Source: a virus. From it: a DNA stretch of 48,745 nucleotides. Within the stretch, counting starts at the first letter, position 1. Each line of letters starts with the position of its first letter. Below are positions 4,658 through 22,800 of this stretch, piece by piece. The position numbers and the translations under genes were made by a program. Where the stretch lies: the IMG/VR virus record IMGVR_UViG_3300036046_000008; one strand, given 5' to 3'. The notes under the pieces were generated by a model, which was not told where the DNA came from, searched no databases, and was given only the letters and a program-made list of their open reading frames with translations.

Positions 4658-4690
4658 GTGGTCTCATTATAGACGATGTAAAATTCGCGA
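4658..4690 (-). promoter_or_regulatory. Conserved promoter-like element copy
   Basis: Minus strand TCGCGAATTTTACATCGTCTATAATGAGACCAC; adjacent perfect 8-bp hairpin at about 4638..4657; no ORF of 60 aa or more downstream. Confidence 0.5.
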
Positions 4691-4692
4691 GG

Positions 4693-5310: not shown

Positions 5311-5404
5311 GACTAATCTCCTTTGCAAGTAGAATATAGGGCGCTCTGTTGAGTCGTTTAAGATGAGCGGTACCGGCGCCGCTCCATCCCCTATCTTTCC
5401 TGTC

Positions 5405-5743: not shown

Positions 5744-5764
5744 TTGACTTTCTCCTCTTGTGAG

Positions 5765-6509: not shown

Positions 6510-6523
6510 CTATTCCTCCTGCG

Positions 6524-10225: not shown

Positions 10226-10228
10226 CGG

Positions 10229-10774
10229 CTAAACTCCCTCCTTCTCGATGACGTAAGCATTCATCTGATACCAGATTTCTGTATTTCGTTGGTCTCGGGG
10301 CGGATGCATCAGTGGAAACAACCCTCCCGATCCATTGTAATCGTAGGTTCGCCAAATAAACCGATCCAGAATCTCGTCGATCTCCCTTTCTACGGCAGGG
10401 TTACGACTATAATCCCGATCGGAACACGGCGGAAACGACAAATTACGGAGAAAAAGCCAAAAATGGTTACGCGGATCTCCCCCGGCGAGAAAAGCAAAGC
10501 GGCGTGTAAGCGCCACTAGCATCTCAAGGACGGAGCATTTTTGGCCAGGCCAGAACAAATCGGCTTCGGAAATATCATGTGTGTCCAAGAATTCTTCGCG
10601 CAGCACTCGTCCGTCTTCTAGACGGTTATCATCGTTGGGGATAAACCAGATAAACTCCTTGAGATAAAGCTGATTAAACAGACGATGACACGTGCGATTG
10701 GGATTCTTGACGCGCGACGACAGAATGAGCTCATAGAGCCACTCCAAATATCGATCGTCAAGGTATTGGCTCAC
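10229..10774 (-). CDS. hypothetical protein
   Basis: Track ORF 181 aa; ATGA-type overlap with upstream gene. Confidence 0.6.
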   Translation of the reverse strand: MSQYLDDRYLEWLYELILSSRVKNPNRTCHRLFNQLYLKEFIWFIPNDDNRLEDGRVLREEFLDTHDISEADLFWPGQKCSVLEMLVALTRRFAFLAGGDPRNHFWLFLRNLSFPPCSDRDYSRNPAVEREIDEILDRFIWRTYDYNGSGGLFPLMHPPRDQRNTEIWYQMNAYVIEKEGV

Positions 10775-11550
10775 CCATCATCACTCCGAAACTTTCGGAC
10801 TTTCCGGAAGGCGCGTGCTGCATCGTGCTGCAGACTATCTTCCTCGTCATACCCCAGAACGTTCTTCTCCCACGAGCCGTAGTCGATAGTGATCAGAACG
10901 TCTAGGCGAAGCTGGTCGTTACGAATATAGACACAAACATTGTCGTCCGAATACTCGTCGAAACGACTGAGATCGGCGTATTCCCCAATTGTGCGCTCAG
11001 GCAACGAGACGACGGTATCTGTCTCATCGACTAGAGCTCCGTCTTCTTCGTAATAGGTCCACTCGACCTGAGCATTGCTGGGTTCGTTGTAGCGAAACTC
11101 TTCTTCTGTGATCAAATATGGAGTGCGGCCCGGCTCTGGGCGTTCGTCCGATACCGGATGATAAGACGCTTCTTGCAGTTTTTCGAGTGGGATCGGATCG
11201 TCCTTATTGGGGCCGTCGGCGTTAGAACGCTCCGGCACTGTATAGAGTCGGGCGTAATCTGTATAGACTGCGTAATCGGTGTCGACCTCTCCCAGCGGTG
11301 CCGGCTTGGCGTTCTCCTCGCCGTTTGGGGCCGGCACGACCTCGTATTCCTCTCGCTTATACAGAGTTTTGTAATATAGCTGGGCTCGTTTCACCTCCTT
11401 TTGCAGAATATCCTCAGAGCGCTCTGCCATAGCTTGCCGCACGAGAATTCCGCCCACGGTTGCTCCGACGCCGAGCCCCAACGCGTAGAAGCCAAACGGG
11501 GACGTTACCCTATGAGCAAGCATCGCCCGAATCAGGTTCATAGAATTCAC
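10771..11550 (-). CDS. hypothetical membrane-anchored protein
   Basis: 259 aa; N-terminal hydrophobic helix then acidic domain. Confidence 0.55.
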   Translation of the reverse strand: MNSMNLIRAMLAHRVTSPFGFYALGLGVGATVGGILVRQAMAERSEDILQKEVKRAQLYYKTLYKREEYEVVPAPNGEENAKPAPLGEVDTDYAVYTDYARLYTVPERSNADGPNKDDPIPLEKLQEASYHPVSDERPEPGRTPYLITEEEFRYNEPSNAQVEWTYYEEDGALVDETDTVVSLPERTIGEYADLSRFDEYSDDNVCVYIRNDQLRLDVLITIDYGSWEKNVLGYDEEDSLQHDAARAFRKVRKFRSDDG

Positions 11551-12500
11551 ACCTCTCGAAAGTTAACTCGGTCGACAATGACGCCATCCACGTTAAAATC
11601 GAGAAACACGGACAGCTCGCGCCCGTTTACAAAATCCCGCAAACGCGGATCATCTCCGTGCAGGAACCCGAAGTCAATATAGTTGTCTCCGGTTCCGTCC
11701 TCGTTGATGCGCCAGCCAACAACCTGCCCAGCTTTGGACCGTTCCATTCCGAGCATGTCGTAGACCTCGTTCAGGAACACATGTCCCTTTGCCTTAAGCA
11801 AATCGTTCGCATAGTTCTGCTGAGCGCGCAGGAACAGATAGTTGGCGTGCGGCACGTCCTGCCAATGCTGGTTGTACTCGTCAAAGAAACGAGCATACGG
11901 CGAATATGCGGTCTCTCCGATACGCTTACGCTCAACTACCTCTTTCGAACCTGTGTCTTTGTTCTCGATCGCCACGCGCTCAGAATATGCGTCGTAACGC
12001 AGGTCACGCTCAACTTCCTCACCGAATTCCTGCCGAACCCGATCGCGATACAGCTTGAACGCCCGGTCCAGTCCATTGTATGCCACCGTCAGGGCAGCCA
12101 CACGAGTGTTGAGGATGAAGTGCGCACGAGCAAACGCGGCGACGGTCAGGGTGCCCACCAAGATTGTGGGGGCGTACAGCCGACCCACGTCAACAAAGGT
12201 CCGCGTGTAAATATAGATGCGATCCCGCAGTGCATCTTCCTCCGTATAGTGATGCTTGGCCACCATCTCGGAGTCTTGCTCGACAGTGCGCACGTTCTGC
12301 AGGTCCTGCTGCGTCTTCTGCAGAACCTCATCGACGCGGAGAGTCGCCCGCGACGCCAGAACGGTGGTTGCCGCAAATCCTACCACGCCCGCACCGAACA
12401 GAATATGAGGCGAGTTAACCTTGCCCGCCAAGACCAGCCGCCCCATCTTTTGGGAGACGGCTGGTGACATGGCTTTTCTAATAAGTTGCAACTTGTTCAT
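11547..12500 (-). CDS. membrane protein, paralog of 15329..16117
   Basis: Track ORF trimmed to ATG at 12500 with GAAAGGA RBS; shares N-terminal TM pattern and C-terminal blocks with 15329..16117. Confidence 0.55.
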   Translation of the reverse strand: MNKLQLIRKAMSPAVSQKMGRLVLAGKVNSPHILFGAGVVGFAATTVLASRATLRVDEVLQKTQQDLQNVRTVEQDSEMVAKHHYTEEDALRDRIYIYTRTFVDVGRLYAPTILVGTLTVAAFARAHFILNTRVAALTVAYNGLDRAFKLYRDRVRQEFGEEVERDLRYDAYSERVAIENKDTGSKEVVERKRIGETAYSPYARFFDEYNQHWQDVPHANYLFLRAQQNYANDLLKAKGHVFLNEVYDMLGMERSKAGQVVGWRINEDGTGDNYIDFGFLHGDDPRLRDFVNGRELSVFLDFNVDGVIVDRVNFREV

Positions 12501-12510
12501 CTTAGTCCTT

Positions 12511-13197
12511 TCAGTCCAGTGGTTCGGGTTGCGAGAGATCGAGCAAATATCCGGACGAGATCCGCCGGACTTTGGCGCCACTTAGATCGTACCAACCCCA
12601 ATTGGCGTCGGTGTACGCCGGAGTCAGATCCAGCAGGTTGTAGAGATCTGAGACGGACACGTGCTGATAGCGATCGAGCAGATCATACATCCGATCCAGG
12701 ACTTCGTGCGCCTCGGCCCGTGTTGTTAGAACCACCTCTTCAAAATTGTGGCTAGTACGGGCTCTCCGACTCAACTCTCGGCGAGGCTGTCTGTCGTCCG
12801 GAAAAGGCGGACGCGTTCGGCTACCACGCCCGGCGTACTGCTCGTACTGAGTGTAAACTCGCGGTCGGCCACCACGCCCAGACCGAACTCTCGGATTGTA
12901 GTAGTGACTGTCCCCGAATAAGAGCCGCTCAATTCCGCCGCTCACCGCATCAGTGATCATGTCTTTCGCAGCGGGAATAAGCACGTCAAGAACCACATAC
13001 TGTCGAACGTTCTGCGCATCGGCCCCTAGGAACGTCTCACGGACTCGACTGCCAAGAGACCGTTTTCTACGAACCACACGGTTGACAACGACCTTCTCGA
13101 TCTTCTTGTCTTCAGCCGGCGGGGCGGGAGGAGGCGCCGGCTGCTGGAACGCTGTGCGCGTGTTTGGAGGAAACTCTTCCATAATATAACCTTCCAT
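12511..13197 (-). CDS. hypothetical protein
   Basis: Track ORF 228 aa; Pro-rich N-terminus. Confidence 0.5.
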   Translation of the reverse strand: MEGYIMEEFPPNTRTAFQQPAPPPAPPAEDKKIEKVVVNRVVRRKRSLGSRVRETFLGADAQNVRQYVVLDVLIPAAKDMITDAVSGGIERLLFGDSHYYNPRVRSGRGGRPRVYTQYEQYAGRGSRTRPPFPDDRQPRRELSRRARTSHNFEEVVLTTRAEAHEVLDRMYDLLDRYQHVSVSDLYNLLDLTPAYTDANWGWYDLSGAKVRRISSGYLLDLSQPEPLD

Positions 13198-13202
13198 TAG
13201 TC

Positions 13203-13239
13203 AAAAATAAAAACTAAAGATCCTTGTGGGGATCTTTAG
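13203..13239 (-). terminator. Intrinsic-terminator-like hairpin (conserved-loop family)
   Basis: Plus CTAAAGATCC-TTGTGG-GGATCTTTAG preceded by A-run, so U-tract on minus-strand RNA; downstream of 13253..13516. Confidence 0.55.
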
Positions 13240-13252
13240 CTCTGAGAGGTTC

Positions 13253-13516
13253 TCAGGGGGTAGGGGTGTCCTCAGTCGTTCCAGAGGTGTCAGGATCGAG
13301 GATCGTGCACAGTGCATTGTCAACATAGTTGGCAGCGTACTGTCCGGCAATCGCGCCCAACGTGATGGAGCCGATAGCAATCTGCATTTTCTGCAAAGGG
13401 CTATCGTCTTCCATTCCGTTAGACGAGAAAGTCCGGCTAGTAGCGCCAGCCACACTAGAGGCGACGACATACCGTACAAACGATCGAGCGATCCGAATTT
13501 TGGTCTCGGTGCGCAT
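13253..13516 (-). CDS. hypothetical protein
   Basis: Track ORF 87 aa; promoter element and GAAAGGAAG RBS upstream. Confidence 0.55.
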   Translation of the reverse strand: MRTETKIRIARSFVRYVVASSVAGATSRTFSSNGMEDDSPLQKMQIAIGSITLGAIAGQYAANYVDNALCTILDPDTSGTTEDTPTP

Positions 13517-13533
13517 GGGGATGCTTCCTTTCT

Positions 13534-13570
13534 GTAGGGGGTCTCATTATACGGCATGCAATTTTCGCGA
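13534..13570 (-). promoter_or_regulatory. Conserved promoter-like element copy (closest to consensus)
   Basis: Minus strand TCGCGAAAATTGCATGCCGTATAATGAGACCCCCTAC then GAAAGGAAG then ATG. Confidence 0.6.
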
Positions 13571-13649
13571 GAGACGGGCGCATGTTCAACTCGTGGCGTG
13601 GGCGGTAGCTACGCCAACAGGTTCTTCGGCTGTCGTTTAAAACCAGCAT

Positions 13650-13680
13650 CCGGTATAGGGGCCAACCCCCTACAGGAAAA
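13650..13680 (-). terminator. Hairpin downstream of 13711..14223 (different family)
   Basis: Plus TAGGGG-CCAA-CCCCTA palindrome. Confidence 0.35.
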
Positions 13681-13710
13681 CCCCTTGCTGGCTCCCGTCA
13701 TGCCCTGTGC

Positions 13711-14223
13711 TTACGCGCGATTCTGAAGGTGCGCGAGAAGCTGCTCTCTCGACATCGACTCCAACTCCGCTTGCGACAGTGTCGTCTCTGTGATCTCGGG
13801 CTCAGCCAAAGGAACGGTTTCGACCGTAGCGCGCTGCGCCTGCTGAATAAGATCGTTAGGCATCACCGCCAACATGAACTGAGCGGCCTTCTCCGGATTT
13901 TCGAACAAAGAGAACAGAAACGCGTCATACGCCGCGGTGTCCTTGAACGCCATCCAAATATCATCCGACTTAGAGAAGCGCTGCCCGTCAGCGCTACGCT
14001 CCCCGTAGGATAGCCGCACAATCTCCTTGACCAGTGCCAAAATCTTGGTAAGTTCCGGCAGAGTTACCTCGCGAACGTCCCCCTCGAGCATGGACTGGAT
14101 TTCCTGCATCTTCTCTCCAAGATGCAGATGGTCGACTAGCTCAGTCTTGGTGATGTTGAAATATAGCGTGCTTGTCTGCGTATTCCCGTTGAAATCTTCG
14201 TAGGTGATAGTCTGCTTATACAT
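13711..14223 (-). CDS. hypothetical protein
   Basis: Track ORF 170 aa. Confidence 0.6.
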   Translation of the reverse strand: MYKQTITYEDFNGNTQTSTLYFNITKTELVDHLHLGEKMQEIQSMLEGDVREVTLPELTKILALVKEIVRLSYGERSADGQRFSKSDDIWMAFKDTAAYDAFLFSLFENPEKAAQFMLAVMPNDLIQQAQRATVETVPLAEPEITETTLSQAELESMSREQLLAHLQNRA

Positions 14224-14566
14224 CCTCGTCCTCCGTGTCGTCTGGGTCTGTCCGCGGCGGGTTCAGTTCCTCAACCAGAATCGCATATAACAAAATCAGA
14301 TAGTTAATATGATCGATAATCTTTTCGTCCCACTCTTCGAGCGAGTGGGTATGAGGAGACTTCGCCATATCAAATATCGACACCGTATGCTTCGCCAGCA
14401 TCCCCGCAAGGGCGCCCGGGCGACTTGTATGCTGCAGATTCGCAGCGGTAGTAAAGTTCGCTAGAACGTCGACCTCCTTGGCGTACTCGCCTCGTTTAAA
14501 AGTTAAGACTGACGAGACTTGTTGGAAAATATGCCCCAACAAGGCGTCAAACTCTGCTTTCCTCAA
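14216..14566 (-). CDS. hypothetical protein (start inferred, TTG)
   Basis: Track ORF 14216..14773 has N-terminus overlapping gene 14628..14855 and a hairpin; trimmed to TTG after GGAGGAG RBS. Confidence 0.4.
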   Translation of the reverse strand: MRKAEFDALLGHIFQQVSSVLTFKRGEYAKEVDVLANFTTAANLQHTSRPGALAGMLAKHTVSIFDMAKSPHTHSLEEWDEKIIDHINYLILLYAILVEELNPPRTDPDDTEDEDV

Positions 14567-14580
14567 AACAACTCCTCCCA

Positions 14581-14616
14581 AAGAAAAACTAAAGAGCCTT
14601 GTTAGGGGCTCTTTAG
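14581..14616 (-). terminator. Intrinsic-terminator-like hairpin (conserved-loop family)
   Basis: Plus CTAAAGAGCC-TTGTTAGG-GGCTCTTTAG; U-tract follows on minus strand. Confidence 0.55.
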
Positions 14617-14627
14617 CTTTTGTGGAC

Positions 14628-14855
14628 TCAGATCTCGTCGGGGGTCGACTCGTCCGTCTTCTCCGGCTTGTTCTCGCAGTCGTCCGACTCCTCGGAGGTC
14701 GTCGACGTGAGAGCGTAGCCGAGCAGAAGGCCGGCGGCAAGCGTACCGCCAACAATGGCGACGCGCTTCCCAAGGGCCTTCCAGTCGACCACGATCACGG
14801 TCTTCGACTCGCTAGGAGCGTCGGCCGCGGGAGCGGGGGTCGGGGTGTGGGACAT
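14628..14855 (-). CDS. small membrane protein
   Basis: Track ORF 75 aa; central hydrophobic helix; promoter element upstream. Confidence 0.55.
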   Translation of the reverse strand: MSHTPTPAPAADAPSESKTVIVVDWKALGKRVAIVGGTLAAGLLLGYALTSTTSEESDDCENKPEKTDESTPDEI

Positions 14856-14871
14856 GGTGTTTCCTTCCTGT

Positions 14872-14912
14872 GAGGGGGTTTGGTCTCACTATAGAGGATG
14901 TAATTTTCGCGA
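14872..14912 (-). promoter_or_regulatory. Conserved promoter-like element copy (variant TATAGT)
   Basis: Minus strand TCGCGAAAATTACATCCTCTATAGTGAGACCAAACCCCCTC. Confidence 0.5.
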
Positions 14913-15290
14913 TTACTCGGTCTCGCAGAGCTCGAGAATATACGCTCCCGCCTCGTCAACGACGTCGCCAATTGTCAGATCCTCCGGCAACTTTGCCAGA
15001 AGGTCGTTGTCTGGCGCGAGCTCGGATACCTCACTAACCAAGGTGTCGCGATCCGGCAACTCATCACCCGCAAAGGTGAACAACATGGCGCCCATCTGCT
15101 CTGACGTGTCCACGCCAAAGAAAGCCAGCGCCTGGCAGAATTCCTCGGGGTCCTGCCCACCCTCGTAGAACACCTCATCCAGCTCGGCCCGCATTTCTTC
15201 TTGCCAAGTGGGGCCGCTATCCGCGCAGCCCGCCAAGGTCAAGATGCCGACCGTGGTAATTGCCGCGTACTTGCCAATCTTCTTCCACAT
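14913..15290 (-). CDS. putative lipoprotein
   Basis: 125 aa; signal peptide with lipobox LTLAGC; acidic mature part. Confidence 0.6.
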   Translation of the reverse strand: MWKKIGKYAAITTVGILTLAGCADSGPTWQEEMRAELDEVFYEGGQDPEEFCQALAFFGVDTSEQMGAMLFTFAGDELPDRDTLVSEVSELAPDNDLLAKLPEDLTIGDVVDEAGAYILELCETE

Positions 15291-15304
15291 TGTGATGCTC
15301 CTTT

Positions 15305-15335
15305 AAATATAGGGGGTTTAAATGTTGTCTAACTC
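15305..15335 (-). promoter_or_regulatory. Degenerate copy of promoter-like element
   Basis: Minus strand CATTTAAACCCCCTATATTTAAAGGAGCA before ATG of 14913..15290. Confidence 0.3.
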
Positions 15336-16117
15336 ACACGGTTGTAGTGTCGTGTCGGACTCACCATAAAATCCATGACAATGCACGGCCGATCGTCGTC
15401 TGCCATGGTGGTAGAGAACCGCAACTCCAAGAGCAGGTCTGAATTCCAACCGATGTCGTCAGAGAACTTCGTTAGATCTAGACCAAGTTGATTGTACAGA
15501 TCGCTCAGAGACGCGTAGAAGTCGTTGATGATCTTCTTGTTAATGTAGTTTTCTGCTCTCCTCATTGCCTCCATATCACTGTAGAAATATCGCCCTGCGT
15601 AGAGGTCATAGCACAGCACTGTGCCTACACCTTGAATAATGGGTTGATTGCGAACAGGGTTATCACGTACCCGATCTTGCGCAATCTCGTCTCTCAGTGC
15701 CCGTTCTTTACTTGAGCCCAGCTGCTCGGTAACCTTGTGCTTATACTCGGTGAACGCGCGCTCTGTCAGAGAATATGCAGCGACCATGGCGGCTGTCCGA
15801 CGATTACTGACATATACGGCGGCGATCAGGCACGCGCAAGAGACTACACCACTTGCTACCGCGGGAATATAAAGACGCCACGTCAACGAGACGATGTCTT
15901 CTTGAGCCAACGGTTCGGCAACGACATAGTTCTGAGCTGCGTCGTCTGCCCGCCGGTCTTTCTCCTCCTCGAGAATATAGGCGGCTCGAAAACCGGCTTG
16001 TGACGCAAGCACCGTCGTTGTAACAACCCCGGCAAGCCCTACAGTTGCAAGTAATGTAGGCGCATTGTCGACGAGAAACTTTTGCGACATCCGCATCACA
16101 TCAGTCAACATCGTCAC
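15329..16117 (-). CDS. membrane protein, paralog of 11547..12500 (start uncertain)
   Basis: Track ORF 262 aa; shared TM and C-terminal blocks with 11547..12500. Confidence 0.55.
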   Translation of the reverse strand: MTMLTDVMRMSQKFLVDNAPTLLATVGLAGVVTTTVLASQAGFRAAYILEEEKDRRADDAAQNYVVAEPLAQEDIVSLTWRLYIPAVASGVVSCACLIAAVYVSNRRTAAMVAAYSLTERAFTEYKHKVTEQLGSSKERALRDEIAQDRVRDNPVRNQPIIQGVGTVLCYDLYAGRYFYSDMEAMRRAENYINKKIINDFYASLSDLYNQLGLDLTKFSDDIGWNSDLLLELRFSTTMADDDRPCIVMDFMVSPTRHYNRVS

Positions 16118-16283
16118 TCCTCTCCATCATCTGTTCTAATAGTCGAATTTCACGTTCACGCTTTATTTGGTAATAATATGCTCGCGTCAATAAGACCGTG
16201 ACAAACGAGCATAAGAGAAACGACGTACTGAGAAAGATATATGCCGCTAAAACCCAGATGTCGCCTGGAACCGACGATCTCAC
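16101..16283 (-). CDS. small membrane protein
   Basis: 60 aa; GTG start after AGGAGGA RBS; hydrophobic core. Confidence 0.5.
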   Translation of the reverse strand: MRSSVPGDIWVLAAYIFLSTSFLLCSFVTVLLTRAYYYQIKREREIRLLEQMMERSDDVD

Positions 16284-16399
16284 TGGTCCTCCTGTAGTTG
16301 TCGGCGGTGACGCAGTTCGATCAGATCTTCAGCCATGAGCGACAGGAAATATGGCCCGAACATCAACAGAAGAATAATGGCGGAAATGACGTCGCCCAT
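16280..16399 (-). CDS. small hydrophobic protein (39 aa, not in track)
   Basis: Manual translation MGDVISAIILLLMFGPYFLSLMAEDLIELRHRRQLQEDQ; GAAGGGAAG RBS; stop overlaps next start as GTGA; coordinates approximate. Confidence 0.35.
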   Translation of the reverse strand: MGDVISAIILLLMFGPYFLSLMAEDLIELRHRRQLQEDQ

Positions 16400-16415
16400 T
16401 TGTGCTTCCCTTCAA

Positions 16416-16456
16416 ACAAAAAAAAGAAAACCTTAGCCCCGTGTTAGGGGGCTAAA
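16416..16456 (-). terminator. Intrinsic-terminator-like hairpin (conserved-loop family)
   Basis: Plus A-run then TTAGCCCC-GTGTTA-GGGGCTAA; just downstream of stop of 16461..16643. Confidence 0.5.
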
Positions 16457-16460
16457 GTCA

Positions 16461-16643
16461 TCAGACCTCCAGGTCCTCAAGAGCAGCCTTGAGCTTGGAG
16501 ACGGTCTTGTTCGTCTTGGTCTTCAGATCAGCAACCTCTTGCTCAACCTGCTGCTTACCCTTGACGGCTGCGTATGCAATGCCCAGGGTGGCGGCGAGGT
16601 TGGTAGTGGTCACGATCAGGAGTGCGACGGTGGAGCCGTTCAT
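16461..16643 (-). CDS. small membrane protein
   Basis: Track ORF trimmed to ATG at 16643 (MNGSTVALL...); the track N-terminus is translated promoter sequence. Confidence 0.55.
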   Translation of the reverse strand: MNGSTVALLIVTTTNLAATLGIAYAAVKGKQQVEQEVADLKTKTNKTVSKLKAALEDLEV

Positions 16644-16659
16644 TTCAATCTTCCTTTCG

Positions 16660-16696
16660 GTAGGGGGTCTCATTATACAGCATGCGATTCTCGCGA
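16660..16696 (-). promoter_or_regulatory. Conserved promoter-like element copy
   Basis: Minus strand TCGCGAGAATCGCATGCTGTATAATGAGACCCCCTAC then CGAAAGGAAG. Confidence 0.6.
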
Positions 16697-16709
16697 TGCC
16701 ATCGGCTCC

Positions 16710-16744
16710 AAAAACAAAACCATAGATCCTTGTGGGGATCTATA
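16710..16744 (-). terminator. Intrinsic-terminator-like hairpin (conserved-loop family)
   Basis: Plus ATAGATCC-TTGTGG-GGATCTAT with flanking A-run. Confidence 0.5.
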
Positions 16745-16760
16745 GCTTTAGAACTACTGG

Positions 16761-16904
16761 TTAACGGGTCTTGGCCAAACGGCGCCGAGCAACGATGAGC
16801 AGTCCAACGACGGCCGCGCCGTACGCAACAGTGATAGTGTTGTGAACGGTCGGGCTCTGGTTGTAGTGGTCAACGTTCTTCTGGCAGAGTTCAGTCCAGG
16901 TCAT
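16761..16904 (-). CDS. small protein with C-terminal hydrophobic segment (47 aa, not in track)
   Basis: Manual translation MTWTELCQKNVDHYNQSPTVHNTITVAYGAAVVGLLIVARRRLAKTR; AAGGAGAAG RBS; coordinates approximate. Confidence 0.4.
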   Translation of the reverse strand: MTWTELCQKNVDHYNQSPTVHNTITVAYGAAVVGLLIVARRRLAKTR

Positions 16905-16920
16905 GGTCTTCTCCTTAAGT

Positions 16921-16955
16921 AGTGGGTCTCATTATATGGCATGCAATTTTCGCGA
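16921..16955 (-). promoter_or_regulatory. Conserved promoter-like element copy
   Basis: Minus strand TCGCGAAAATTGCATGCCATATAATGAGACCCACT. Confidence 0.55.
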
Positions 16956-16961
16956 CCTAAC

Positions 16962-16995
16962 CAAGACTAAGACTCCGTGTGGGAGTCTTGTCTTA
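16962..16995 (-). terminator. Hairpin (conserved-loop family)
   Basis: Plus AAGACTCC-GTGTGG-GAGTCTT. Confidence 0.4.
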
Positions 16996-17001
16996 AGACG
17001 G

Positions 17002-17121
17002 CTATCGAACGACAGCCATGTCTTCGATCCGGCGGGTTGCGCGGGTCTGGCGACGCTTCTCTCTAAGGTCTTCGTCAAAGAGATAGGTCACCACAGTCGC
17101 GCGAGCGGCGGAAAGGGTCAT
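17002..17121 (-). CDS. small basic protein (39 aa, not in track)
   Basis: Manual translation MTLSAARATVVTYLFDEDLREKRRQTRATRRIEDMAVVR; GAAAGG RBS; coordinates approximate. Confidence 0.35.
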   Translation of the reverse strand: MTLSAARATVVTYLFDEDLREKRRQTRATRRIEDMAVVR

Positions 17122-17138
17122 GGTCTTTCCTTTCATTA

Positions 17139-17175
17139 GTAGGGGGTCTCATTATACTACGTGTTATTTCCGCGA
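17139..17175 (-). promoter_or_regulatory. Conserved promoter-like element copy
   Basis: Minus strand TCGCGGAAATAACACGTAGTATAATGAGACCCCCTAC. Confidence 0.55.
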
Positions 17176-17235
17176 CCTTCCTACAATTTTTGCTCCGGGG
17201 AATTTTTAGATTTTCAATTTATCCGAAGTGTGGGC

Positions 17236-17268
17236 AAAAGCTAAAACTCCTTGTAGGGAGCTTTAGCC
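17236..17268 (-). terminator. Hairpin (conserved-loop family)
   Basis: Plus CTAAAACTCC-TTGTAG-GGAGCTTTAG; downstream of 17296..17580. Confidence 0.45.
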
Positions 17269-17295
17269 TTTACCTTCAATCGTCCGGGGTTACGG

Positions 17296-17580
17296 TCAGC
17301 GCAGAATACGCAAGAAAGGCAGAGCCTTCGAGGTGATGACGTGAGTTCGTTCATAACCGACAATCACCAGAATTCCGGCAAGGTTACCAAGTACGGCAGC
17401 CCAAGCGTCCGGGCTCACGCGCTGAGGGCGGTCAATTTCCTTCAGCGCATAAAGCTTCGTTAGCTGGTCTGCCATCGCGGCATACTCGTCAGAGTCTGAT
17501 GTCAAGCCGGCCATTTCCGAGAAAATCTCGTCAATAGCCTCATCAAGCTTCGACTTCTCTTTAGTCTTACGGCGCAACAT
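17296..17580 (-). CDS. hypothetical protein
   Basis: Track ORF trimmed to ATG at 17580 (MLRRKTKEK...); upstream codons are translated promoter sequence. Confidence 0.55.
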   Translation of the reverse strand: MLRRKTKEKSKLDEAIDEIFSEMAGLTSDSDEYAAMADQLTKLYALKEIDRPQRVSPDAWAAVLGNLAGILVIVGYERTHVITSKALPFLRILR

Positions 17581-17593
17581 GGTGCTCCTTTCG

Positions 17594-17630
17594 GTAGAGG
17601 GTGTCATTATATGACGTGTATCAATCGCGG
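17594..17630 (-). promoter_or_regulatory. Conserved promoter-like element copy (variant)
   Basis: Minus strand CCGCGATTGATACACGTCATATAATGACACCCTCTAC then GAAAGGAGCACC ATG. Confidence 0.5.
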
Positions 17631-17824
17631 TCAGACCGCTCTACCGAAAATATAACGCGTTTCTTATGCTCCATGTCTAACGGATCGACATTAAGCTCCA
17701 AACTGAACAACTTTTTACCATCATGTTCAGTGATCAAAATAACACCGTCTGTTTTGCGCCGATGATAATACAAATATAACAGATTCAGACCGAGAAGCAC
17801 TAGAATTACTAGATACATTTCCAC
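17621..17824 (-). CDS. small membrane protein
   Basis: 67 aa; N-terminal TM helix; GTG start after TAGGAG. Confidence 0.45.
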   Translation of the reverse strand: MEMYLVILVLLGLNLLYLYYHRRKTDGVILITEHDGKKLFSLELNVDPLDMEHKKRVIFSVERSDRD

Positions 17825-17833: not shown

Positions 17834-19018
17834 CTATAGGTATGTAAACGCCGGATATGCCTCAAACCCCTCAGGGGTATCAGTACGAATATACTCAGTA
17901 ACACGAGCACGCACCATAGGCGTATATCGGCCACGGACCGAGACAATATCCCCCAGAAAATAATCCTGCCCGTAGACCCATTGCGATCGTGTAGACACCT
18001 CGCCGTCGACAGCTTGCAGTTTTAGATGGGCTTCGAGAATACGTTCGCCTTCGTCAACATTATGCTCGTTCCACTCAGTGTTATCATACCCTTCTTCGGG
18101 ATCGCCCCCGTCAATATAAAACACTCGACGACTAAGACCGGTTAGCTGCCCTTCCGGGCGACGAGCAATAACGATGCCGTTATTAACAAGAATCGCTGCC
18201 TCGTTATGGTAAATATCCATAGAGAAGGTATAGTTCGGCCGGATCAAATCGTCGATCTCAGTGTCAAAGATCACAATGGCGTACGTAGTCTGGCCATGGC
18301 TCTTGTTAAATCCGCGATACACGTCCCACCGCAGGGCAGTAATGTTTGTATTTGTCGCGCCCGTAACAGCACCTGTAGACGAATCAATATCTATTACGCG
18401 CCCTGAGGAAGGCGGTCGGATCGTCCGAAAACCATAAGGGCGATACCGTAAAAATTTCTGAACTTCGGGCAGCGCTGGGCCCGGACGAATAAACCGTTGC
18501 TTGATCGGCCCCGCGTTGCCGCTCGTAATATCGGTGGTGCTATCCGTGACGACAGTGTTTAAGACTCCATCGTTCGAATTCTTCGCGCTCACAACCGGAG
18601 GCTGCCGAGTATAGTCATACGTGGACCGTTCATGTAGGGCATGGTAAATCAATCGTAAAGCTGATGCAAGCGGTGAGTGCGAGAATGCTTTGTACCGCTG
18701 AGCTCGCTTTCTCCCCAAGACGCGATGATTCAGAAATGACGTGATAGATCTCCCAGACACAATAAGCTTCTCAATGCCGGCGTCATCCGTTTCAATGCGG
18801 ATATTCTCGACCATCATTACCTCAGTTGTCTGGCGCAGACTGACTAGGGTTTCCATGGGCAACACAGCCAAAGTCTTACGAACCGCATACGTCTCTAGCT
18901 GAAACTCGCCAGGCTCGGCGAAGCGCTCAGTCCAGATCAATGAATGATAATGCGTAATCGGATCGCCCACTGGCAAAAAGGTCGACGAGCTCAAAACAAG
19001 GAAATCTAAAGTAGACAT
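17834..19018 (-). CDS. minor tail protein (tail-tip, Tal-like position)
   Basis: 394 aa; second gene after tape measure; start abuts upstream stop. Confidence 0.5.
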   Translation of the reverse strand: MSTLDFLVLSSSTFLPVGDPITHYHSLIWTERFAEPGEFQLETYAVRKTLAVLPMETLVSLRQTTEVMMVENIRIETDDAGIEKLIVSGRSITSFLNHRVLGRKRAQRYKAFSHSPLASALRLIYHALHERSTYDYTRQPPVVSAKNSNDGVLNTVVTDSTTDITSGNAGPIKQRFIRPGPALPEVQKFLRYRPYGFRTIRPPSSGRVIDIDSSTGAVTGATNTNITALRWDVYRGFNKSHGQTTYAIVIFDTEIDDLIRPNYTFSMDIYHNEAAILVNNGIVIARRPEGQLTGLSRRVFYIDGGDPEEGYDNTEWNEHNVDEGERILEAHLKLQAVDGEVSTRSQWVYGQDYFLGDIVSVRGRYTPMVRARVTEYIRTDTPEGFEAYPAFTYL

Positions 19019-19840
19019 CTAGATCCCCCAATGCCGGCTACGATACTCAAAAGAGATCCATTCAAACTGCGAGGGATTGGATGTCTGAACGACGTGCGTG
19101 CCGCCATGTAGCGTTAACCATTTCGATTCTGCTGTCAGCATCTCCAAAAATCGGATAAACGAAGCCTCTCTTTTTAGTTTAACCTGTCGCGTGGCCTGAT
19201 TCGTATCAACAATCAGACGATCGTTTACTGCAAAAGCCGATTGGAAGTCCATAAAGGTTCCATTTTGAATTGCGATAGAGAAAGTCGAAACGGCTGTCAG
19301 AAATTTAATCTCAAAGGCCACGCCGGTAGGAGCGAGCCCCACATTGTCAATTGTCCACGTACTTGTTGCCGGCGGGATAAAACGGGTTACGTCCGGCTTT
19401 TCCAGATAAGGTCCTAGACAATCGATCGTAATCTGGACTTCTGGTTTCTTATTGAACGGAACAATCTCAATACGCTTAACGTAACCAACCGTCTCAACAA
19501 CAGCTTCGTTCTGGGAGAGAAAAACCACGCGAATGGACTGATTTGCCGGATCAACGCCCGGACTCAGCAGCCCGTACAGATAGTAACGCAAATCGGAGAC
19601 TGTTTGGCCAATCTTGTAATCAGGGTTAAGGCCCACCCGAGCAACAATCTGCCTGCCTTGCGAGCGCCGATCTACAAACACCCCGCCCGGAGTATGCGTC
19701 TCGGCGAGAACGACATCGAGTTCAGGCGGACCTAAACCGTCGATATGAGCAACTTGATACGGGTCGGTCGCCTTGACCCCAAAGATCGGCAAGTCGATCT
19801 CGGTCAGACCAATGAGCCGGACTGCGTCAAATACAATCAT
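19019..19840 (-). CDS. minor tail protein (distal-tail, Dit-like position)
   Basis: 273 aa; immediately downstream of tape measure with ATGA overlap. Confidence 0.5.
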   Translation of the reverse strand: MIVFDAVRLIGLTEIDLPIFGVKATDPYQVAHIDGLGPPELDVVLAETHTPGGVFVDRRSQGRQIVARVGLNPDYKIGQTVSDLRYYLYGLLSPGVDPANQSIRVVFLSQNEAVVETVGYVKRIEIVPFNKKPEVQITIDCLGPYLEKPDVTRFIPPATSTWTIDNVGLAPTGVAFEIKFLTAVSTFSIAIQNGTFMDFQSAFAVNDRLIVDTNQATRQVKLKREASFIRFLEMLTAESKWLTLHGGTHVVQTSNPSQFEWISFEYRSRHWGI

Positions 19841-22800
19841 AGCTGACTCAAAGCCTCCTTTGCGAGATCCAATTGATTGCGCGTATTCCGATAGATTTCC
19901 AAAGCGCTCAGAGCCTTGGGCGAGTTGTTGTACTGCTTAAATTCTACGCGAGCTTGCCGAGCGAGCTCCGCTTGCTGCGCAAACGCCTGAGCACTTACCG
20001 CCCGCGCTTGAGCAATATCTCCGGCCCGATTCACAGAGACCTGAGGGGTAAGCCTACCATTACGAAGCAACGCGTTGGCTGTCGCTGCGTCTTTACGGAA
20101 CGAAGTAAGGTCTAGAACAGGCGCCACGACTGGGCGAATATTCAGATCGCCGTCCATCATCTTGTCCATGTCTTTCAACGACGCCTTCATCGCACTAATA
20201 GCAGCATTCCCGACCCGCGCGGCAGACTTCTGAACCTGCTTGGAATTGTTATCCAGCCCGACAACGAGGCCGTCGTCGAAATATCGGCCCAGAAGCATTG
20301 TTTCTCGCGCCGGCGAGTTGATGCCAAACACATCCTTGGCAGCCTGAAGGGCGGCAATGGCGATTCGACGCGCTTCGGCCACAACTCGACCAACTCCGCT
20401 CGCAAGCCCACCCGTCATGCCATCAATGATTGCGCCAGCCAGATTTGCACCCGCCGCGCGCAAGTCGCCCGAACGATTTCTGATAGTGGTCGCGACGCCA
20501 TTGATAAACTTAATCACCGCATCGGCGCCCTCGTTCACCAATTTATTTGCTCCCTGACTAACCTCTCGAATGAACCGAGTAATAAGATTGATCCCAGCGT
20601 TCACGACCCGCGACATATTGTTGGACACACCGTTGATAAACTTTACCACAACGTTGACGCCAGCCGTAACAATCCGGTTCATGTTGCTCGCCAGACCGTT
20701 CAAGAAACGAACAACAATATCGCTGCCCAGCCGGACAATTTGCGGAATATTATCCCGGATCCCACGCATCAGACGAACCAACATCTCGAAGCCAACAGTG
20801 ATCAACGTCGGGAACAAGGCCCGAATATTCTTAATTCCTTCGAGCACTAGAGTGCGGAATGCTTGACCCATCTTTGGGACGTTCTGGATGACCGCGTCCA
20901 AAAGTGCGCCCAACAAGGCAGAGAACGCCTTTACCAGTTCTGTGGCACCTTTCCCAATCGTCGCGACGAACTCGATCATGCCTCTGGCCAAGGCGTTCGC
21001 AAGCCGCGGGATTGCTGTGGCCACATGCTCGAATCCGTCGCGAATAATTTGAACGCCCACCTGAACTGCTTTGATCGCGACATAGAAGGCTGCGGCAAAT
21101 ATAAGAGACGCTGCGCCTACAGCAGATAGGCCCAACCCAAACACAATCAGTGCCGCCCCACCAGCCGCAATCAAAGGGGCAGCGGATCCAAAGGCAACGC
21201 CCGCCGCAAAGAGCAAAGTCATTGCGATCGTAAAGGAGATAAGCGACTTTACCAGGTCGCCCCAACTCAATTCGCTCAATGACGTAATAACTGGGATAAA
21301 TATAGCAATGGCGGCTGCCGCTACAAGCAACGCGCCTGCGCCTGCCATGGTACCCGACATAGCTGCCAAAGCAACACCAATAATAGTCAGCGCCAACGCA
21401 AGCGTAATAAGACCTTTAGCAATCTCGCCGATTGACATCCCGCCAAACGTCTGAACAACTTTGCTGATGATGAGGAGAGCGCCAGACAACACGAGCAAGG
21501 CTGCCGCGTTCGCAAGCATGTTGGTAGGCATTTTGCTCATAGCTTTCGCCAAAATAACTAAGGCGGCGGCCATCACCAGCAAGCCCTTGCCCGACTCTTT
21601 AAGCTCTGGCCCCGCAAAAGACTGAATTGCTTTGGAGAGAAGGAGCAACGCTCCTGCAATAATAACCAGACTCACAGCCTGCCCTTTAAGGGGCGGCATC
21701 ATCTTCATGCCTTGACTGATGACGATCAAAGCCGCGGCTACAGCAGTCAGGCCTCGGGCAAGGTCACTCCAACTCAACGCGGCCAAGTCTTCTAGAGCCT
21801 GCGCAAGAATAACCATTGCCGTCGCAATTGCGATAATCCCGAGCCCGGCTCTAATCAACCCCTTGGGGTCCTTGGCCAAGGCATTGGCCGCCTTCGTCAG
21901 GGCAAGCAAACCGCCCGCAATGCCAACAAGACCTTTAGCAATCTCTTCCCAGCTGAGGCCGCTCAACCGCTTTAGAGCAGCCGCAAGAATAAGCAAGGAC
22001 GTTGACAACAGGACAAGGCCCGCCGCGAGCGCCGGCATCTTAACAGCTGCGGGGGAGTCAACAATTCGGTCCATGATTGCCATGCCGCCAAGCAACACTG
22101 CAAATCCCGCAGACATCGCTCCAATCGCTTTCGCTAGATCTGCGGCGTTGATCATAGACAAGATTACTAGCGCCCCTGCTAGAATCGCGATAGCCCCAGC
22201 GATCTTGAGCAGAGCATTGGCTTTCAGATTTTGCTGCATGCCTTCGAGAACGCCGGTCAGCCCCTGCAACGAGTCCTTGACGCTGTCCAAGAACCCACCA
22301 GACAGATCCAACGACACCCCGAAGCCTTCGCTGACAAGTTTGCGGATCGCTACCGCCAGAGCCCCTGCCCCGGCTGCGCCGCCCAGCGTAAATATAGACG
22401 ACCAGTCGATGCCGGCAAATACCTCAGAAAAGCGTTCTCTAACAGACTTGCCGAACTCTCCAATTTGCGAAAGGATTGGCGCAACAAAATCGCCAAAGCG
22501 CTTGAAAGCGTCACTCAACCCTTGAACACCTGTGGTAACACTTTCGACAACACCACTCAGCACACTAACCTGAGGTACCCCATCGTCAACCTTCTTGAAG
22601 AAATCGCCCACCTTAGCCGCGATCTCGAGGAAGCCGCCCGACGCGCCAAACAGCGCCGCAGCCAAGTCAAATATAAAGCCCGCAATACCCTTGATGACTT
22701 TGATGCCGATCGACAAGGCTGAGAAGACCCCTGTAGCAATGCGCCCGATTTGTTCAAGGGTTTCCTGAGACGGAATGAGCCCTTCGGTGAACTCTCGGAA

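Follow-up and report, generated by a model that had tools for sequence, protein, structure and literature searches.

Morons, as Juhala and colleagues and Hendrix and colleagues are said to have described them in 2000, are genes with a promoter and a terminator of their own that lie between the core genes of temperate phages. In T4-like phages, composite terminator/promoter motifs are known as PeSL (promoter-early stem-loop) (PMC2839356, PMC4122927). Phages of clusters AM, AU, BI, CC and DJ carry numerous small transmembrane (TM) genes of unknown function downstream of their tail genes (PMC5513430, PMC13313380), with 14-16 such genes per array in the Arthrobacter phages (PMC5513430), and relatives in this lineage have been described as lytic (10.1101/2022.11.23.517428). 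The promoter of the polymerase YonO, which drives one late operon, is still undefined (PMC5467207).

The DNA analyzed here, called the window below, is the whole 48,745-nt stretch IMGVR_UViG_3300036046_000008, a metagenomic siphovirus of the actinophage supercluster AM/AU/AW/BI/CC/DJ/EL. Its lineage markers are a fused protease-capsid gene, Sipho_Gp37, two DUF6353 genes, a primase-polymerase and an RdRP-like protein with HTH. The fused capsid-maturation protease and major capsid gene (27670-29655) matches Peptidase_S78 and Phage_capsid, and, read along the transcribed strand, an endolysin-like gene (36310-37131) precedes TerL (33192-34937), as in AM and AU phages (PMC5513430). The DUF6353 paralogs are found at 15329-16111 (PF19880, E=4e-78) and 11547-12581 (phrog_2152, E=1.5e-75). 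The RdRP-like protein (893 aa, 44540-47221) shares 50-58% identity with its homologs, which occur in 250 phage records of the supercluster clusters; it has N- and C-terminal HTH domains and the sequence DFDGD at residue 514 (a DxDGD loop), and its match to RdRP PF05183 is weak. Homologs of this protein were given the same YonO-like, two-barrel polymerase assignment by Koert et al. (10.1101/842583).

The region studied here is the window phage's copy of the published post-tail array of small membrane genes. Gordonia phage OlgasClover has the same array layout. In the window, TM or signal segments downstream of the tail genes are carried by a 65-aa gene, the genes named A, C, D, E, F and G below, a lipoprotein gene and a 75-aa gene, but not by gene B. 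The genes themselves had already been flagged as unusual in Arthrobacter, Rhodococcus and Gordonia phages; what the present analysis adds is their regulatory frame, a shared promoter-leader-terminator arrangement of which no description was found in the literature searched. The original prediction, which had singled out five small ORFs (B to F), overlooked that arrays of this kind have already been described as characteristic of the AM/AU/CC/DJ/BI supercluster (PMC5513430, PMC13313380).

Layout of the array

Read on the minus strand, the array spans about 17630 to 15329, beyond which come more units of a similar kind. Its features, listed in the direction of that strand, are as follows.

17581-17630, minus strand: promoter-leader element of A, CCGC-N7-ACA-N5-TATAAT-GACACCCTCTAC-CGAAAGGAG
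17296-17580, minus strand: gene A, 94 aa, with a C-terminal TM-like segment (phrog_5818, E=3.8e-33)
17233-17274, minus strand: terminator-like hairpin after A, 18-bp stem GGCTAAAGCTCC-CTACAA-GGAGTTTTAGCTTTT
17122-17175, minus strand: promoter-leader element of B, TCGC-N7-ACA-N5-TATAAT-GAGACCCCCTAC..GAAAGGA
17002-17121, minus strand: gene B, 39 aa, basic, soluble-looking, without TM segment; an ORFan, called by JGI
16969-16989, minus strand: hairpin after B, AAGACTCC-CACAC-GGAGTCTT, poor in U-run, abutting the next promoter
16905-16955, minus strand: promoter-leader element of C (motif match)
16761-16904, minus strand: gene C, 47 aa, with a polar N-terminus, one TM segment and an RRRLAKTR tail
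16715-16750, minus strand: intrinsic-terminator-like hairpin after C, GCTATAGATCC-CCACAA-GGATCTATGG followed by TTTTGTTTTT (U-run)
16644-16696, minus strand: promoter-leader element of D (motif match)
16461-16643, minus strand: gene D, 60 aa, with an N-terminal TM segment and an amphipathic, coiled-coil-like tail; a conserved family
16419-16459, minus strand: strong intrinsic-terminator-like hairpin after D (hairpin 16459-16429), 12-bp stem followed by TTTTCTTTTTTTT
16280-16399, minus strand: gene E, 39 aa, with an N-terminal TM segment and a charged tail, heading the putative E-F-DUF6353 operon
16101-16283, minus strand: gene F, 60 aa, GTG start, with one TM segment and a charged tail; the least certain ORF
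15329-16111, minus strand: gene G, a DUF6353 membrane protein of 260 aa (PF19880, E=4e-78; phrog_2152)

It can be seen that, as far as the sequence tells, the array has four monocistronic cassettes (A, B, C and D), all with a promoter-like element at the start and a hairpin at the end. The cassette hairpins are of a common sequence type, GCTAAAG..CCCnACAAGG..CTTTAG plus a U-run. A hairpin abuts or lies near the promoter of C and D and stands 60 nt off that of B; there is none in front of the element of A, which directly follows the last gene of the tail operon. Gene A, the first array unit, is the element's most conserved cargo, with homologs in 59 of 72 related loci and beside the motif in 84 of 120 IMG/VR stretches.

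All five ORFs of the original prediction are present on the minus strand, and the starts it had picked for B and D (ATG at 17121 and 16643) are the true ones, the longer listed versions beginning within the promoter or Shine-Dalgarno (SD) sequence. Each has the good ribosome-binding site claimed for it: GAAAGGA-N6-ATG (B), AAGGAG-N6-ATG (C), GAAAGGAAG-N6-ATG (D), GAAGGGAAG-N6-ATG (E) and AGGAGGA-N3-GTG (F). Three of the five are shorter than 60 aa, as had been said (B 39, C 47 and E 39). The description of the set as mostly hydrophobic fits C, D, E and F, with one TM-like segment each, but not B. A promoter and a hairpin had been placed around every gene; this holds for B, C and D, whereas E and F have no promoter motif ahead of them and no hairpin between them. 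The picture of independently transcribed small membrane peptides fits B, C, D and their neighbor A, but not E and F, which are coupled to the DUF6353 gene. The array also begins further upstream than had been proposed, with the gene A unit (promoter 17630-17581, hairpin 17274-17233) as a fourth complete unit.

The stop of E overlaps the start of F (GTGA), and the end of F overlaps the start of G. Judging from these overlaps, E and F form a translationally coupled operon with the DUF6353 gene and are not cassettes. E starts 29 nt past the stem of D's terminator and about 20 nt past its U-run, and the order D-hairpin-E is also found in the related locus L079. Since no promoter follows the D hairpin, E, F and G would have to be reached by read-through, and they are probably expressed by read-through of the D terminator. 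G homologs occur in 237 phage records, and G is the conserved anchor of the array. Its predicted fold is a long helical hairpin with two TM-like stretches and an alpha/beta C-domain (AF2 pLDDT 78.5), and it is adjoined by the lipoprotein, which carries an LAGC lipobox.

The promoter-leader element and its possible polymerase

The consensus of the element, built from 310 unique sites, is about 45 nt long and reads TCGC-N7-ACA-N5-TATAAT-GAGACCCCCTAC-(n)-GAAAGGA-N6-ATG, usually near a terminator-like hairpin. By sequence logic, from which the words promoter and terminator are taken here, it consists of a promoter, a leader that is short and conserved, and an extended Shine-Dalgarno site. The window has ten copies, each of them on the minus strand at a position downstream of the tail genes. 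Exact matches to its 13-mer TATAATGAGACCC number six in the window, none of them on the plus strand, and four further copies carry 1-2 mismatches; about 0.001 exact copies would be expected from length alone. The same element is found in OlgasClover. In 72 related loci (38-59% GC), 324 copies lie on the coding strand and 16 on the opposite strand, and the core of the element is strand-specific also in 31%-GC relatives and in ReqiPoco6. The exact 19-base pattern occurs in at least 120 IMG/VR stretches, and 117 of these code for homologs of proteins in the window; a search of 596 Gb from bacterial and archaeal genomes found it in 6 stretches only, about chance level. Not every copy precedes an ORF: promoter copies with an immediate hairpin and no ORF lie at 4659 and 2429 of the window, and others in L203 and ReqiPoco6.

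The enzyme that reads the promoter may be a single-chain two-barrel (YonO/RdRP-like) RNA polymerase with HTH that the phage itself encodes (44540-47221), and not host sigma-A holoenzyme, a choice towards which we lean slightly. A phage with its own polymerase would be expected to have its own promoters. Motif and polymerase co-occur: the motif, present in hundreds of related phages, is confined to the polymerase-bearing lineage and is absent from its Lactococcus branch, and it is kept across host genera and GC contents. The distance from the upstream TCGC block to the hexamer is 13 nt, not the 16-19 nt expected of a -35 element, and a sigma-70 consensus scan found one of the four local elements, via a chance CTGACC. 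Among 176 unbiased sites, T3, A4 and T6 of the hexamer are kept in 95%, 93% and 98%; position 2, the most critical for sigma-70-type recognition, is A in 85%, about level with position 5 and second least conserved of the six. In a sigma-70-type -10 hexamer A2 and T6 would be the most conserved bases; T6 fits this, and A2 falls below T3 and A4. TGTAAT (16 times), TTAAAT and CTTAAT all occur, and the flanking non-sigma positions are nearly invariant. In Streptomyces phage RosaAsantewaa the hexamer is TTAAAT or TAAGAT and ATGAGACCCC is kept. A fuller version of this idea, in which the element is the promoter of the HTH-bearing YonO-like polymerase, maybe carried in the virion, and the small membrane-gene cassettes are its regulon, probably expressed early, is tentative. 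The ReqiPoco6 homolog of the 893-aa protein carries the annotation structural protein on account of its similarity to gp75 of Lactococcus phage 1706.

A possible but rather doubtful alternative is that these are ordinary strong host promoters for actinobacterial sigma-A, with TCGC, ACA and GAGACCCCCTAC forming a phage regulator site or a translation or mRNA-stability leader, and with the phage polymerase transcribing something else, e.g. late genes. TATAAT is the exact -10 consensus, usable by host sigma-A, and is present unaltered in 106 of the 176 unbiased sites; many actinobacterial promoters are active without a -35 element. A CCCCCTA..AAAGGAG leader without the promoter core is found ahead of the lipoprotein gene (15316 region), so the leader is separable from the promoter, and in L079 the spacers between hexamer and CCCCCTAC vary in length. 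Lactococcus phage P092 has a polymerase homolog (37% identity) and lacks the motif, and YonO of SPbeta uses one start site to transcribe late genes (PMC5467207). Against host promoters stand the hexamer statistics and the TCGC distance given above, and the persistence of the 19-base composite in phages whose hosts span 31% to more than 65% GC, together with its chance-level frequency in cellular genomes.

Cargo of the cassettes

The in-frame codon-usage LLR per codon is 0.37 for B, 0.37 for C, 0.54 for D and 0.33 for E, compared with 0.32 +/- 0.13 for real genes of the same genome and -0.50 +/- 0.22 off frame. F scores 0.03, near neutral, and is absent from the JGI gene calls for the contig. 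Conservation in related phages had been proposed as a check on the five ORFs, and it bears out D, C, E and, weakly and by position, F, but not B, which matched only itself among 1.84 billion (1.84e9) representative proteins. D has homologs in five relatives at 30-48% identity, one of them an isolated Gordonia phage, and matches phrog_28025 (E=5e-4); it aligns nearly without gaps to 57-61 aa proteins of L079 (48%), L080 (46-47%), L078 (37%) and OlgasClover gene 46 (30%). C has one homolog (P0122, 60% identity), just upstream of a D homolog and within the same promoter/terminator frame, and C-D synteny is kept in L203. E is 35% identical, without gaps, to a 37-aa gene after D in L079 and 26% identical to a 41-aa gene upstream of F/G in L078. 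At 34% identity F resembles a 62-aa gene that immediately precedes DUF6353 in L081, and TM proteins of 55-63 aa occupy its position in L078, L079, L080 and OlgasClover. By sequence F is the weakest of the ORFs, its support coming from these positional look-alikes.

Behind 572 unique sites of the element we found 508 ORFs, with a median of 73 aa and a 5th-95th percentile range of 30-100 aa. A TM-like segment is present in 54% of this cargo, which falls into 224 sequence clusters, 170 of them singletons. A stable structure follows the cargo ORF in 71% of cases versus 35% of random 70-mers, and a hairpin of at least 7 bp lies within 75 nt upstream of 46% of the sites versus 28% of controls (median gap 12 nt). 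Between A and D the window has B and C; in L079 this slot is filled by a single unrelated gene of 78 aa, and in L080 by one of 81 aa. Of the 846 internal homology breakpoints (HSP ends) among nine DJ phages, 272 fall within 60 nt of the promoter core versus 70 expected, in phage pairs that are non-independent. Conserved motifs themselves tend to terminate alignments, a caveat on this enrichment.

The best overall explanation, to which we give a probability of roughly 0.6, is that the cassette array consists of PeSL- or moron-like expression units for envelope-directed accessory proteins, possibly read by the YonO-like polymerase. With this frame, each small protein would be expressed strongly and at a level of its own, and the hairpins would attenuate transcription into the genes downstream. 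The conserved flanks would behave like T4-type PeSL elements or lambdoid moron boundaries, with cassette-wise insertion, loss and swap. Flanks that permit such exchange of cargo would leave the cargo hypervariable and the frame conserved. The small proteins would insert in the host cytoplasmic membrane, mostly as single-pass N-out/C-in proteins with short charged tails, and may act on the envelope to exclude superinfecting phages, to take over the host envelope or to time lysis; the neighboring DUF6353 proteins and the lipoprotein would be their partners. Links to the envelope are the lipoprotein beside G and, in relatives, the lysis genes that head this array (a holin-family gene in L080, a hydrolase and a holin in RosaAsantewaa). 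This envelope action is the weakest step of the explanation; no family, structure or paper searched gives a function for the small proteins, and the original suggestions of host takeover, exclusion and envelope action are plausible.

It is unlikely that some or all of the small membrane proteins are the phage's missing lysis-control proteins (holin, antiholin, spanin-like or lysis-timing). Many holins are small single-pass proteins with charged C-terminal tails, and C, D, E and F are built in this way. No recognizable holin lies beside the endolysin-like gene, only a LysM protein and a 37-aa TM ORF. Lysis genes head the same array in L080 (a holin-family gene, Phage_holin_Dp1) and in RosaAsantewaa, where genes 23-25 (hydrolase plus holin) stand directly ahead of an A-like gene. 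However, none of B to F matches a holin family in Pfam or PHROGs, and the endolysin-like gene is 19 kb from the array. Such genes are far more numerous than a lysis system needs, 14-16 in the Arthrobacter phages (PMC5513430); the hypervariable cargo (170 singletons among 508) is unlike an essential lysis component, and each gene stands on a strong, constitutive-type-looking promoter common to replication-region genes.

That some ORFs, above all B and F, are untranslated, the units being short non-coding transcripts or regulatory or recombination spacers, is very improbable: the missing homologs of B, the low score and missing JGI call of F and the ORF-less promoter-hairpin copies of the lineage would fit it, but B has a canonical GAAAGGA-N6-ATG and scores like a real gene in codon usage, F combines a strong SD with the start/stop overlaps of coupled genes and with TM counterparts in L081 and four other relatives, and C, D and E are conserved as proteins.

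Comparison with known systems

One promoter-leader element, in phages from 31% to 59% GC, fronts hundreds of different tiny proteins. It could serve to find genuine very small phage genes missed by annotation cut-offs, and gives a concrete and cheap handle on the recognition sequence of the lineage's uncharacterized YonO-like polymerase. If it is indeed a phage-polymerase promoter, this polymerase class would gain its first promoter consensus, together with several hundred naturally occurring variants of it, and the array would be a PeSL-like cassette system on a phage-private transcription code. The element array suggests a second, independent case of PeSL-type cassette shuffling as a route for phages to sample new accessory proteins.

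The post-tail arrays of the supercluster (AM, AU and AW in Arthrobacter; CC in Rhodococcus, ReqiPepy6/Poco6; DJ in Gordonia; BI in Streptomyces; EL in Microbacterium) have the same position as that of the window, after TMP, Dit and the Gp37-like tail protein and before DUF6353 and the replication genes. They hold the same kind of gene (30-100 aa, about half with one TM segment), and A, D and DUF6353 are homologous. In contrast to the supercluster isolates, the window is an uncultured metagenomic member (JGI 3300021518), at most 58% identical in protein to any isolate; its array is shorter, with six small genes as against 14-16, and B is unique to it.

Like PeSL, the element, where a hairpin lies close upstream, would be a small conserved composite of stem-loop and promoter that occurs in many copies in a variable region and flanks small, mostly ORFan genes; breakpoints cluster at the elements, and cassettes appear to be gained, lost and replaced as units by recombination. 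Unlike PeSL, it belongs to actinobacterial siphoviruses, is unrelated in sequence, includes a conserved leader and SD, has a hairpin just upstream of only about half of its promoters, and lacks the sigma-70 -35/-10 geometry. Membership in the PeSL family was rejected on phage group, sequence and the lack of a -35 at 16-19 nt, and the element is an analogue only.

Morons often encode envelope-directed products (exclusion proteins, lipoproteins), and they are typically single, with individually different promoters, prophage expression and a deviant base composition. A, B, C and D resemble them as what look like self-contained promoter-gene-terminator units; unlike morons, the window units are in tandem, share one lineage-specific promoter and belong to phages described as lytic.

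The 893-aa protein, a predicted polymerase, resembles YonO of SPbeta and the crAss-like virion RNA polymerases in its DxDGD loop and weak RdRP match. It differs from YonO in its N- and C-terminal HTH domains and in its candidate promoter, which is present in multiple copies and precedes small non-structural genes.

Gene content of the array

Every gene of the window lies on the minus strand, and the small genes A to F lie between the tail genes and gene G, which encodes a DUF6353 protein. B to F are the five ORFs of the original prediction; together with their Shine-Dalgarno (SD) sites they are real.

Features of the array, in order of transcription (LLR, codon score as log-likelihood ratio per codon)
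19837-24102, minus strand: tape measure gene, upstream of the array
19019-19840, minus strand: Dit-like gene, upstream of the array
17834-19018, minus strand: Sipho_Gp37-like gene, upstream of the array
about 17627-17824, minus strand: gene for a 65-aa TM protein, first after the tail genes
17296-17580, minus strand: gene A, 94 aa
17274-17233, minus strand: hairpin after A
17002-17121, minus strand: gene B, LLR 0.37
16989-16969, minus strand: hairpin after B, weak U-run
16761-16904, minus strand: gene C, LLR 0.37
16750-16715, minus strand: hairpin after C
16461-16643, minus strand: gene D, LLR 0.54
16459-16429, minus strand: hairpin after D, with long U-run
16280-16399, minus strand: gene E, LLR 0.33
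16101-16283, minus strand: gene F, GTG start, LLR 0.03
15329-16111, minus strand: gene G, 260-aa DUF6353 protein (PF19880, E=4e-78)

The codon score compares in-frame with off-frame models, for which 16 large genes of the window served as the training set; controls gave 0.32 +/- 0.13 in frame and -0.50 +/- 0.22 off frame. The JGI annotation of the same contig (metagenome 3300021518, Ga0224722_1000099) calls A to E and G but not F. One TM-like segment is found in each of C, D, E and F, and none in B (MTLSAARATVVTYLFDEDLREKRRQTRATRRIEDMAVVR). The predicted starts of B and D proved correct, since the longer listed versions begin inside the promoter ATG (TATA-ATG-AGA) or inside the SD.

It had been proposed that each of the five ORFs has a promoter element on one side and a hairpin on the other, as in an array of independently transcribed cassettes. 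This description applies to three of them (B, C and D) and not to E and F, because E has no preceding promoter element, its stop overlaps the GTG start of F, and the end of F overlaps the start of G; the cassette interpretation is thus right in part. E starts 29 nt past the hairpin stem of the D terminator and about 20 nt past its U-run.

Conservation of the five ORFs in related phages was uneven. The nearest relatives by DUF6353 identity are four metagenomic loci, L078 (56%), L081 (54%), L079 (52%) and L080 (50%). D is 48, 46 and 37% identical (BLASTP) to 60-61 aa proteins of L079, L080 and L078 respectively, and 30% identical, with one 3-residue gap, to gene 46 of Gordonia phage OlgasClover. 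E shows 35% identity to a 37-aa gene after D in L079 and 26% to a 41-aa gene upstream of F/G in L078. The sole homolog of C among 5.8 billion proteins is P0122 (60% identity), whose 1.1-kb contig reads promoter-C-hairpin-promoter-D-hairpin-promoter-60aa-hairpin and then carries two promoters without ORFs. F is 34% identical to a 62-aa gene upstream of DUF6353 in L081, without a significant BLAST match. For B, a search of 1.84 billion representative proteins recovered no protein other than B itself. Between A and D, where the window has B and C, L079 has a single unrelated TM gene of 78 aa and L080 a gene for a soluble protein of 81 aa.

The putative promoter-leader element and its terminator-like hairpins

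The same element of about 45 nt, a promoter-like core (TCGC-N7-ACA-N5-TATAAT) followed by a leader and an SD (GAAAGGA-N6-ATG), stands ahead of each of A, B, C and D, for example GGTCGCGAAAATTGCATGCCATATAATGAGACCCACTACTTAAGGAGAAGACCATG. The 13-mer TATAATGAGACCC occurs in the window in six exact copies and four with 1-2 mismatches, all ten on the minus strand at positions 801-17611. A simple sigma-70 scan recognised one of the four local promoters; standard promoter finders would miss these elements. Leader (CCCCCTAC..GAAAGGA) and promoter can be separated: in L079 the spacers are variable, and the lipoprotein gene at 14913-15290 is preceded by a leader (CCCCCTA..AAAGGAG) without the promoter core.

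The hairpins after A to D are variants of a single sequence, GCTAAAG..CC-CnACAAGG-..CTTTAG-TTTT, and those behind a 75-aa and an 87-aa gene further down are of the same type. One terminator-hairpin type, with the conserved loop CCCnACAAGG / CCCTAACACGG, is found at 13210-13243, 14589-14616, 16429-16459, 16715-16750 and 17233-17274 (minus strand). The loop types CTAACAC, CCACAA, CTACAA and TACAT recur in relatives sharing only about 50% protein identity, which suggests that the loop itself is under selection, e.g. for protein binding or processing. A search of Rfam over 12.5-18.5 kb gave nothing credible (best E=0.49), which leaves the units unexplained by any known RNA family. A type I toxin-antitoxin-like arrangement of small hydrophobic peptide and antisense RNA was discarded, as antisense promoters and conserved antisense features are absent and transcription uses a single strand of the genome.

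Is the arrangement a peculiarity of this window? OlgasClover carries the same element (e.g. TTTCCTCGCACGAATTACATGCCCTATAATGAGACCCCTACGAAAGG) in eight copies within 12.8 kb, all on the coding strand. Two more isolated relatives, Gordonia phage Kenosha and Arthrobacter phage Circum, have it too. Allowing TATAATGAGACC up to 2 mismatches, a search of 72 related loci (GC 38-59%) found 324 copies on the coding strand versus 16 on the other; 310 unique sites yield the consensus tttt...TCGCAgaAAatACA.GgCcTATAATGAGACCCcta..aaaggaa. Relatives of 31% GC retain TCGCG-N6-ACA-N5-TATAgTGAAAG. For the core TCGC-N7-[AG]CA-N5-TATAnT, coding and opposite strands gave 5-6 versus 0 copies in the 31%-GC relatives, 11 versus 0 in ReqiPoco6 and 7 versus 0 in the window; Lactococcus phage P092 lacks it. 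At least 120 IMG/VR stretches contain the exact 19-base pattern, and 117 of them encode homologs of window proteins, most commonly gene A (84), DUF6353 (63) and the Gp37-like tail protein (57). Bacterial and archaeal genomes totalling 596 Gb contained this pattern in 6 stretches against about 4 expected by chance, and the multi-copy stretches among these are short MAG contigs.

Behind 572 unique sites lie 508 SD-preceded ORFs, with a median of 73 aa (5th-95th percentile 30-100 aa); 54% of them reach 1.6 or more in a Kyte-Doolittle window of 19 residues. Clustering by sequence gave 224 groups, of which 170 are singletons and the gene A family is the largest. The 70 nt past the stop fold to -18 kcal/mol or below for 71% of this cargo versus 35% of random 70-mers, and 46% of sites, versus 28% of controls, have a hairpin of 7 bp or more in the 75 nt upstream (median gap 12 nt). 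These results indicate that the module of conserved promoter-leader, tiny variable gene and hairpin is a property of the lineage and not of the window alone. When nine Gordonia DJ loci were compared with one another by blastn, 272 of the 846 internal ends of alignments lay within 60 nt of a promoter core versus 70 expected from coverage, although the pairs are non-independent and conserved islands naturally end alignments. A literature search for the motif string returned unrelated matches only, and no description of the promoter-leader-terminator frame was found in the literature searched.

Further copies of the element occur elsewhere in the window.

Other copies of the element
2375-2460, minus strand: tandem pair of promoter elements, with the hexamer of the first (TATAAT) at 2441-2436
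about 4600-4690, minus strand: promoter element without an SD-preceded ORF
833-906, minus strand: tRNA-Lys (UUU), directly upstream of the next element
779-832, minus strand: element driving a gene for an 89-aa TM protein

The first promoter of the tandem is directly followed by a hairpin formed by its own conserved leader (CCCCCTACATGGGGG) and TTTTG, and the second drives a 103-aa gene; this arrangement could be a built-in attenuator or give a transcript of about 25 nt. The transcript predicted from about 4600-4690, GAGACCACAACGACTGTTTAGTCGTTG..GGTCTATATTTTT, is a hairpin with a U-run and is a candidate small RNA; ORF-less copies are also found in the related locus L203 and in ReqiPoco6 (TATAATGAGAAGG...). 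At site 4659, the 12 bases GAGACCACAACG match the start of the T7 phi10 leader, probably by coincidence. In ReqiPoco6 one copy of the promoter lies 9 nt upstream of a tRNA gene.

The polymerase reading the element

The 893-aa protein encoded at 44540-47221 (minus strand) is 50-58% identical to proteins in 250 phage records. It has a weak RdRP match (PF05183), C-terminal HTH / sigma-r4-like matches and DFDGD at residue 514. Its homologs have been described as YonO/crAss-like two-barrel RNA polymerase candidates and as a signature of this phage group (Koert et al., 10.1101/842583). Judged by these matches, the protein is a candidate YonO-like single-chain two-barrel RNA polymerase. The ReqiPoco6 record labels its homolog 'structural protein' because it resembles a structural protein of Lactococcus 1706; this GenBank note, the sole basis for a virion polymerase, would fit an injected enzyme.

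We put the probability that the element is read by the phage polymerase at roughly 55%; that the lineage has its own polymerase-like protein points this way. Recognition by host sigma-A is a serious though less probable alternative, and the perfect TATAAT hexamer at most sites speaks for it. However, the sole conserved upstream block lies 13 nt from the hexamer and not 16-19. The strongest dependence of a sigma-70-type -10 element is on A at position 2, yet among 176 sites from loci fetched by protein and not by motif, this position is A in 85%, with TGTAAT occurring 16 times; positions 3, 4 and 6 are conserved at 95, 93 and 98%. In Streptomyces phage RosaAsantewaa (22573-26128), TATAAT is replaced by TTAAAT, TTAAAT, TAAGAT and TTAAAT, yet TCGC and ACA are kept and ATGAGACCCC is invariant, and these copies form a natural mutational series for asking which polymerase reads the element. 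Finally, the composite is retained across hosts of widely differing GC, while cellular genomes contain it at about chance level, which also argues against sigma-A.

Envelope context and comparison with the known array

Pfam and PHROGs placed the small proteins A and D in families of 'unknown function' and otherwise gave sub-threshold noise; PDB and fold comparison gave nothing informative. The context points to the envelope: the region contains two DUF6353 membrane proteins and a lipoprotein.

Envelope-related and other features
14913-15290, minus strand: 125-aa lipoprotein (MWKKIGKYAAITTVGILTLAGC...), LAGC lipobox, adjoining G
11547-12581, minus strand: second, longer DUF6353 paralog (phrog_2152, E=1.5e-75)
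36310-37131, minus strand: endolysin-like gene, 273 aa (phrog_17214, E=1e-11), away from the array
27670-29655, minus strand: single 661-aa gene, prohead protease (Peptidase_S78) fused to an HK97-type capsid domain
38714-39262 and 40245-41804, minus strand: two proteins with Mtd_N + Phage_tail_C domains

Relatives also have two DUF6353 copies; in ReqiPoco6, the annotation describes gp054 and gp069 as mutually similar. Homologs of the lipoprotein lie upstream of E-F-G or inside the E-F-G operon in L078 and L081, so the gene moves within the array; by analogy only, its product is a candidate for superinfection exclusion. In relatives the array is headed by a Dp1-type holin gene (L080) or by a hydrolase and a holin (RosaAsantewaa). 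In the window, a 74-aa LysM-like protein and a 37-aa TM ORF come after the endolysin-like gene, and no recognisable holin was found in this neighbourhood (36009-37131). This context leads us to propose that the small proteins may have envelope-directed accessory roles, in exclusion, takeover or lysis timing, for which private promoters would supply a high copy number.

By Megablast the region matched none of 50,697 phage records, so relatives are detectable at the protein level only. Such matches place the window in an actinophage supercluster (Arthrobacter AM/AU/AW, Streptomyces BI and relatives, Gordonia DJ, Rhodococcus CC, Microbacterium EL), with Lactococcus and Faecalibacterium phages as more distant kin; DUF6353 has matches in 237 phage records, the Gp37-like tail protein in 304. 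The protease-capsid fusion has been reported likewise for clusters AM and AU. The two Mtd_N/Phage_tail_C proteins, one with collagen repeats and the other with a fibritin-like segment, are encoded upstream of lysin and terminase, distant from the remaining tail genes, and may be fibres for receptor binding whose genes lie outside the tail module.

In the annotated OlgasClover genome, 15 small genes, many labelled 'membrane protein', lie between the minor tail genes and the DUF6353 gene. Directly upstream of the latter, a 36-aa and a 63-aa gene overlap by 4 bp, mirroring E, F and G. The region is an uncultured new example of an array type already published. Beyond the known array, the points of interest are that the promoter-leader-terminator frame is conserved and that it is probably linked to an uncharacterised RNA polymerase of the phage.
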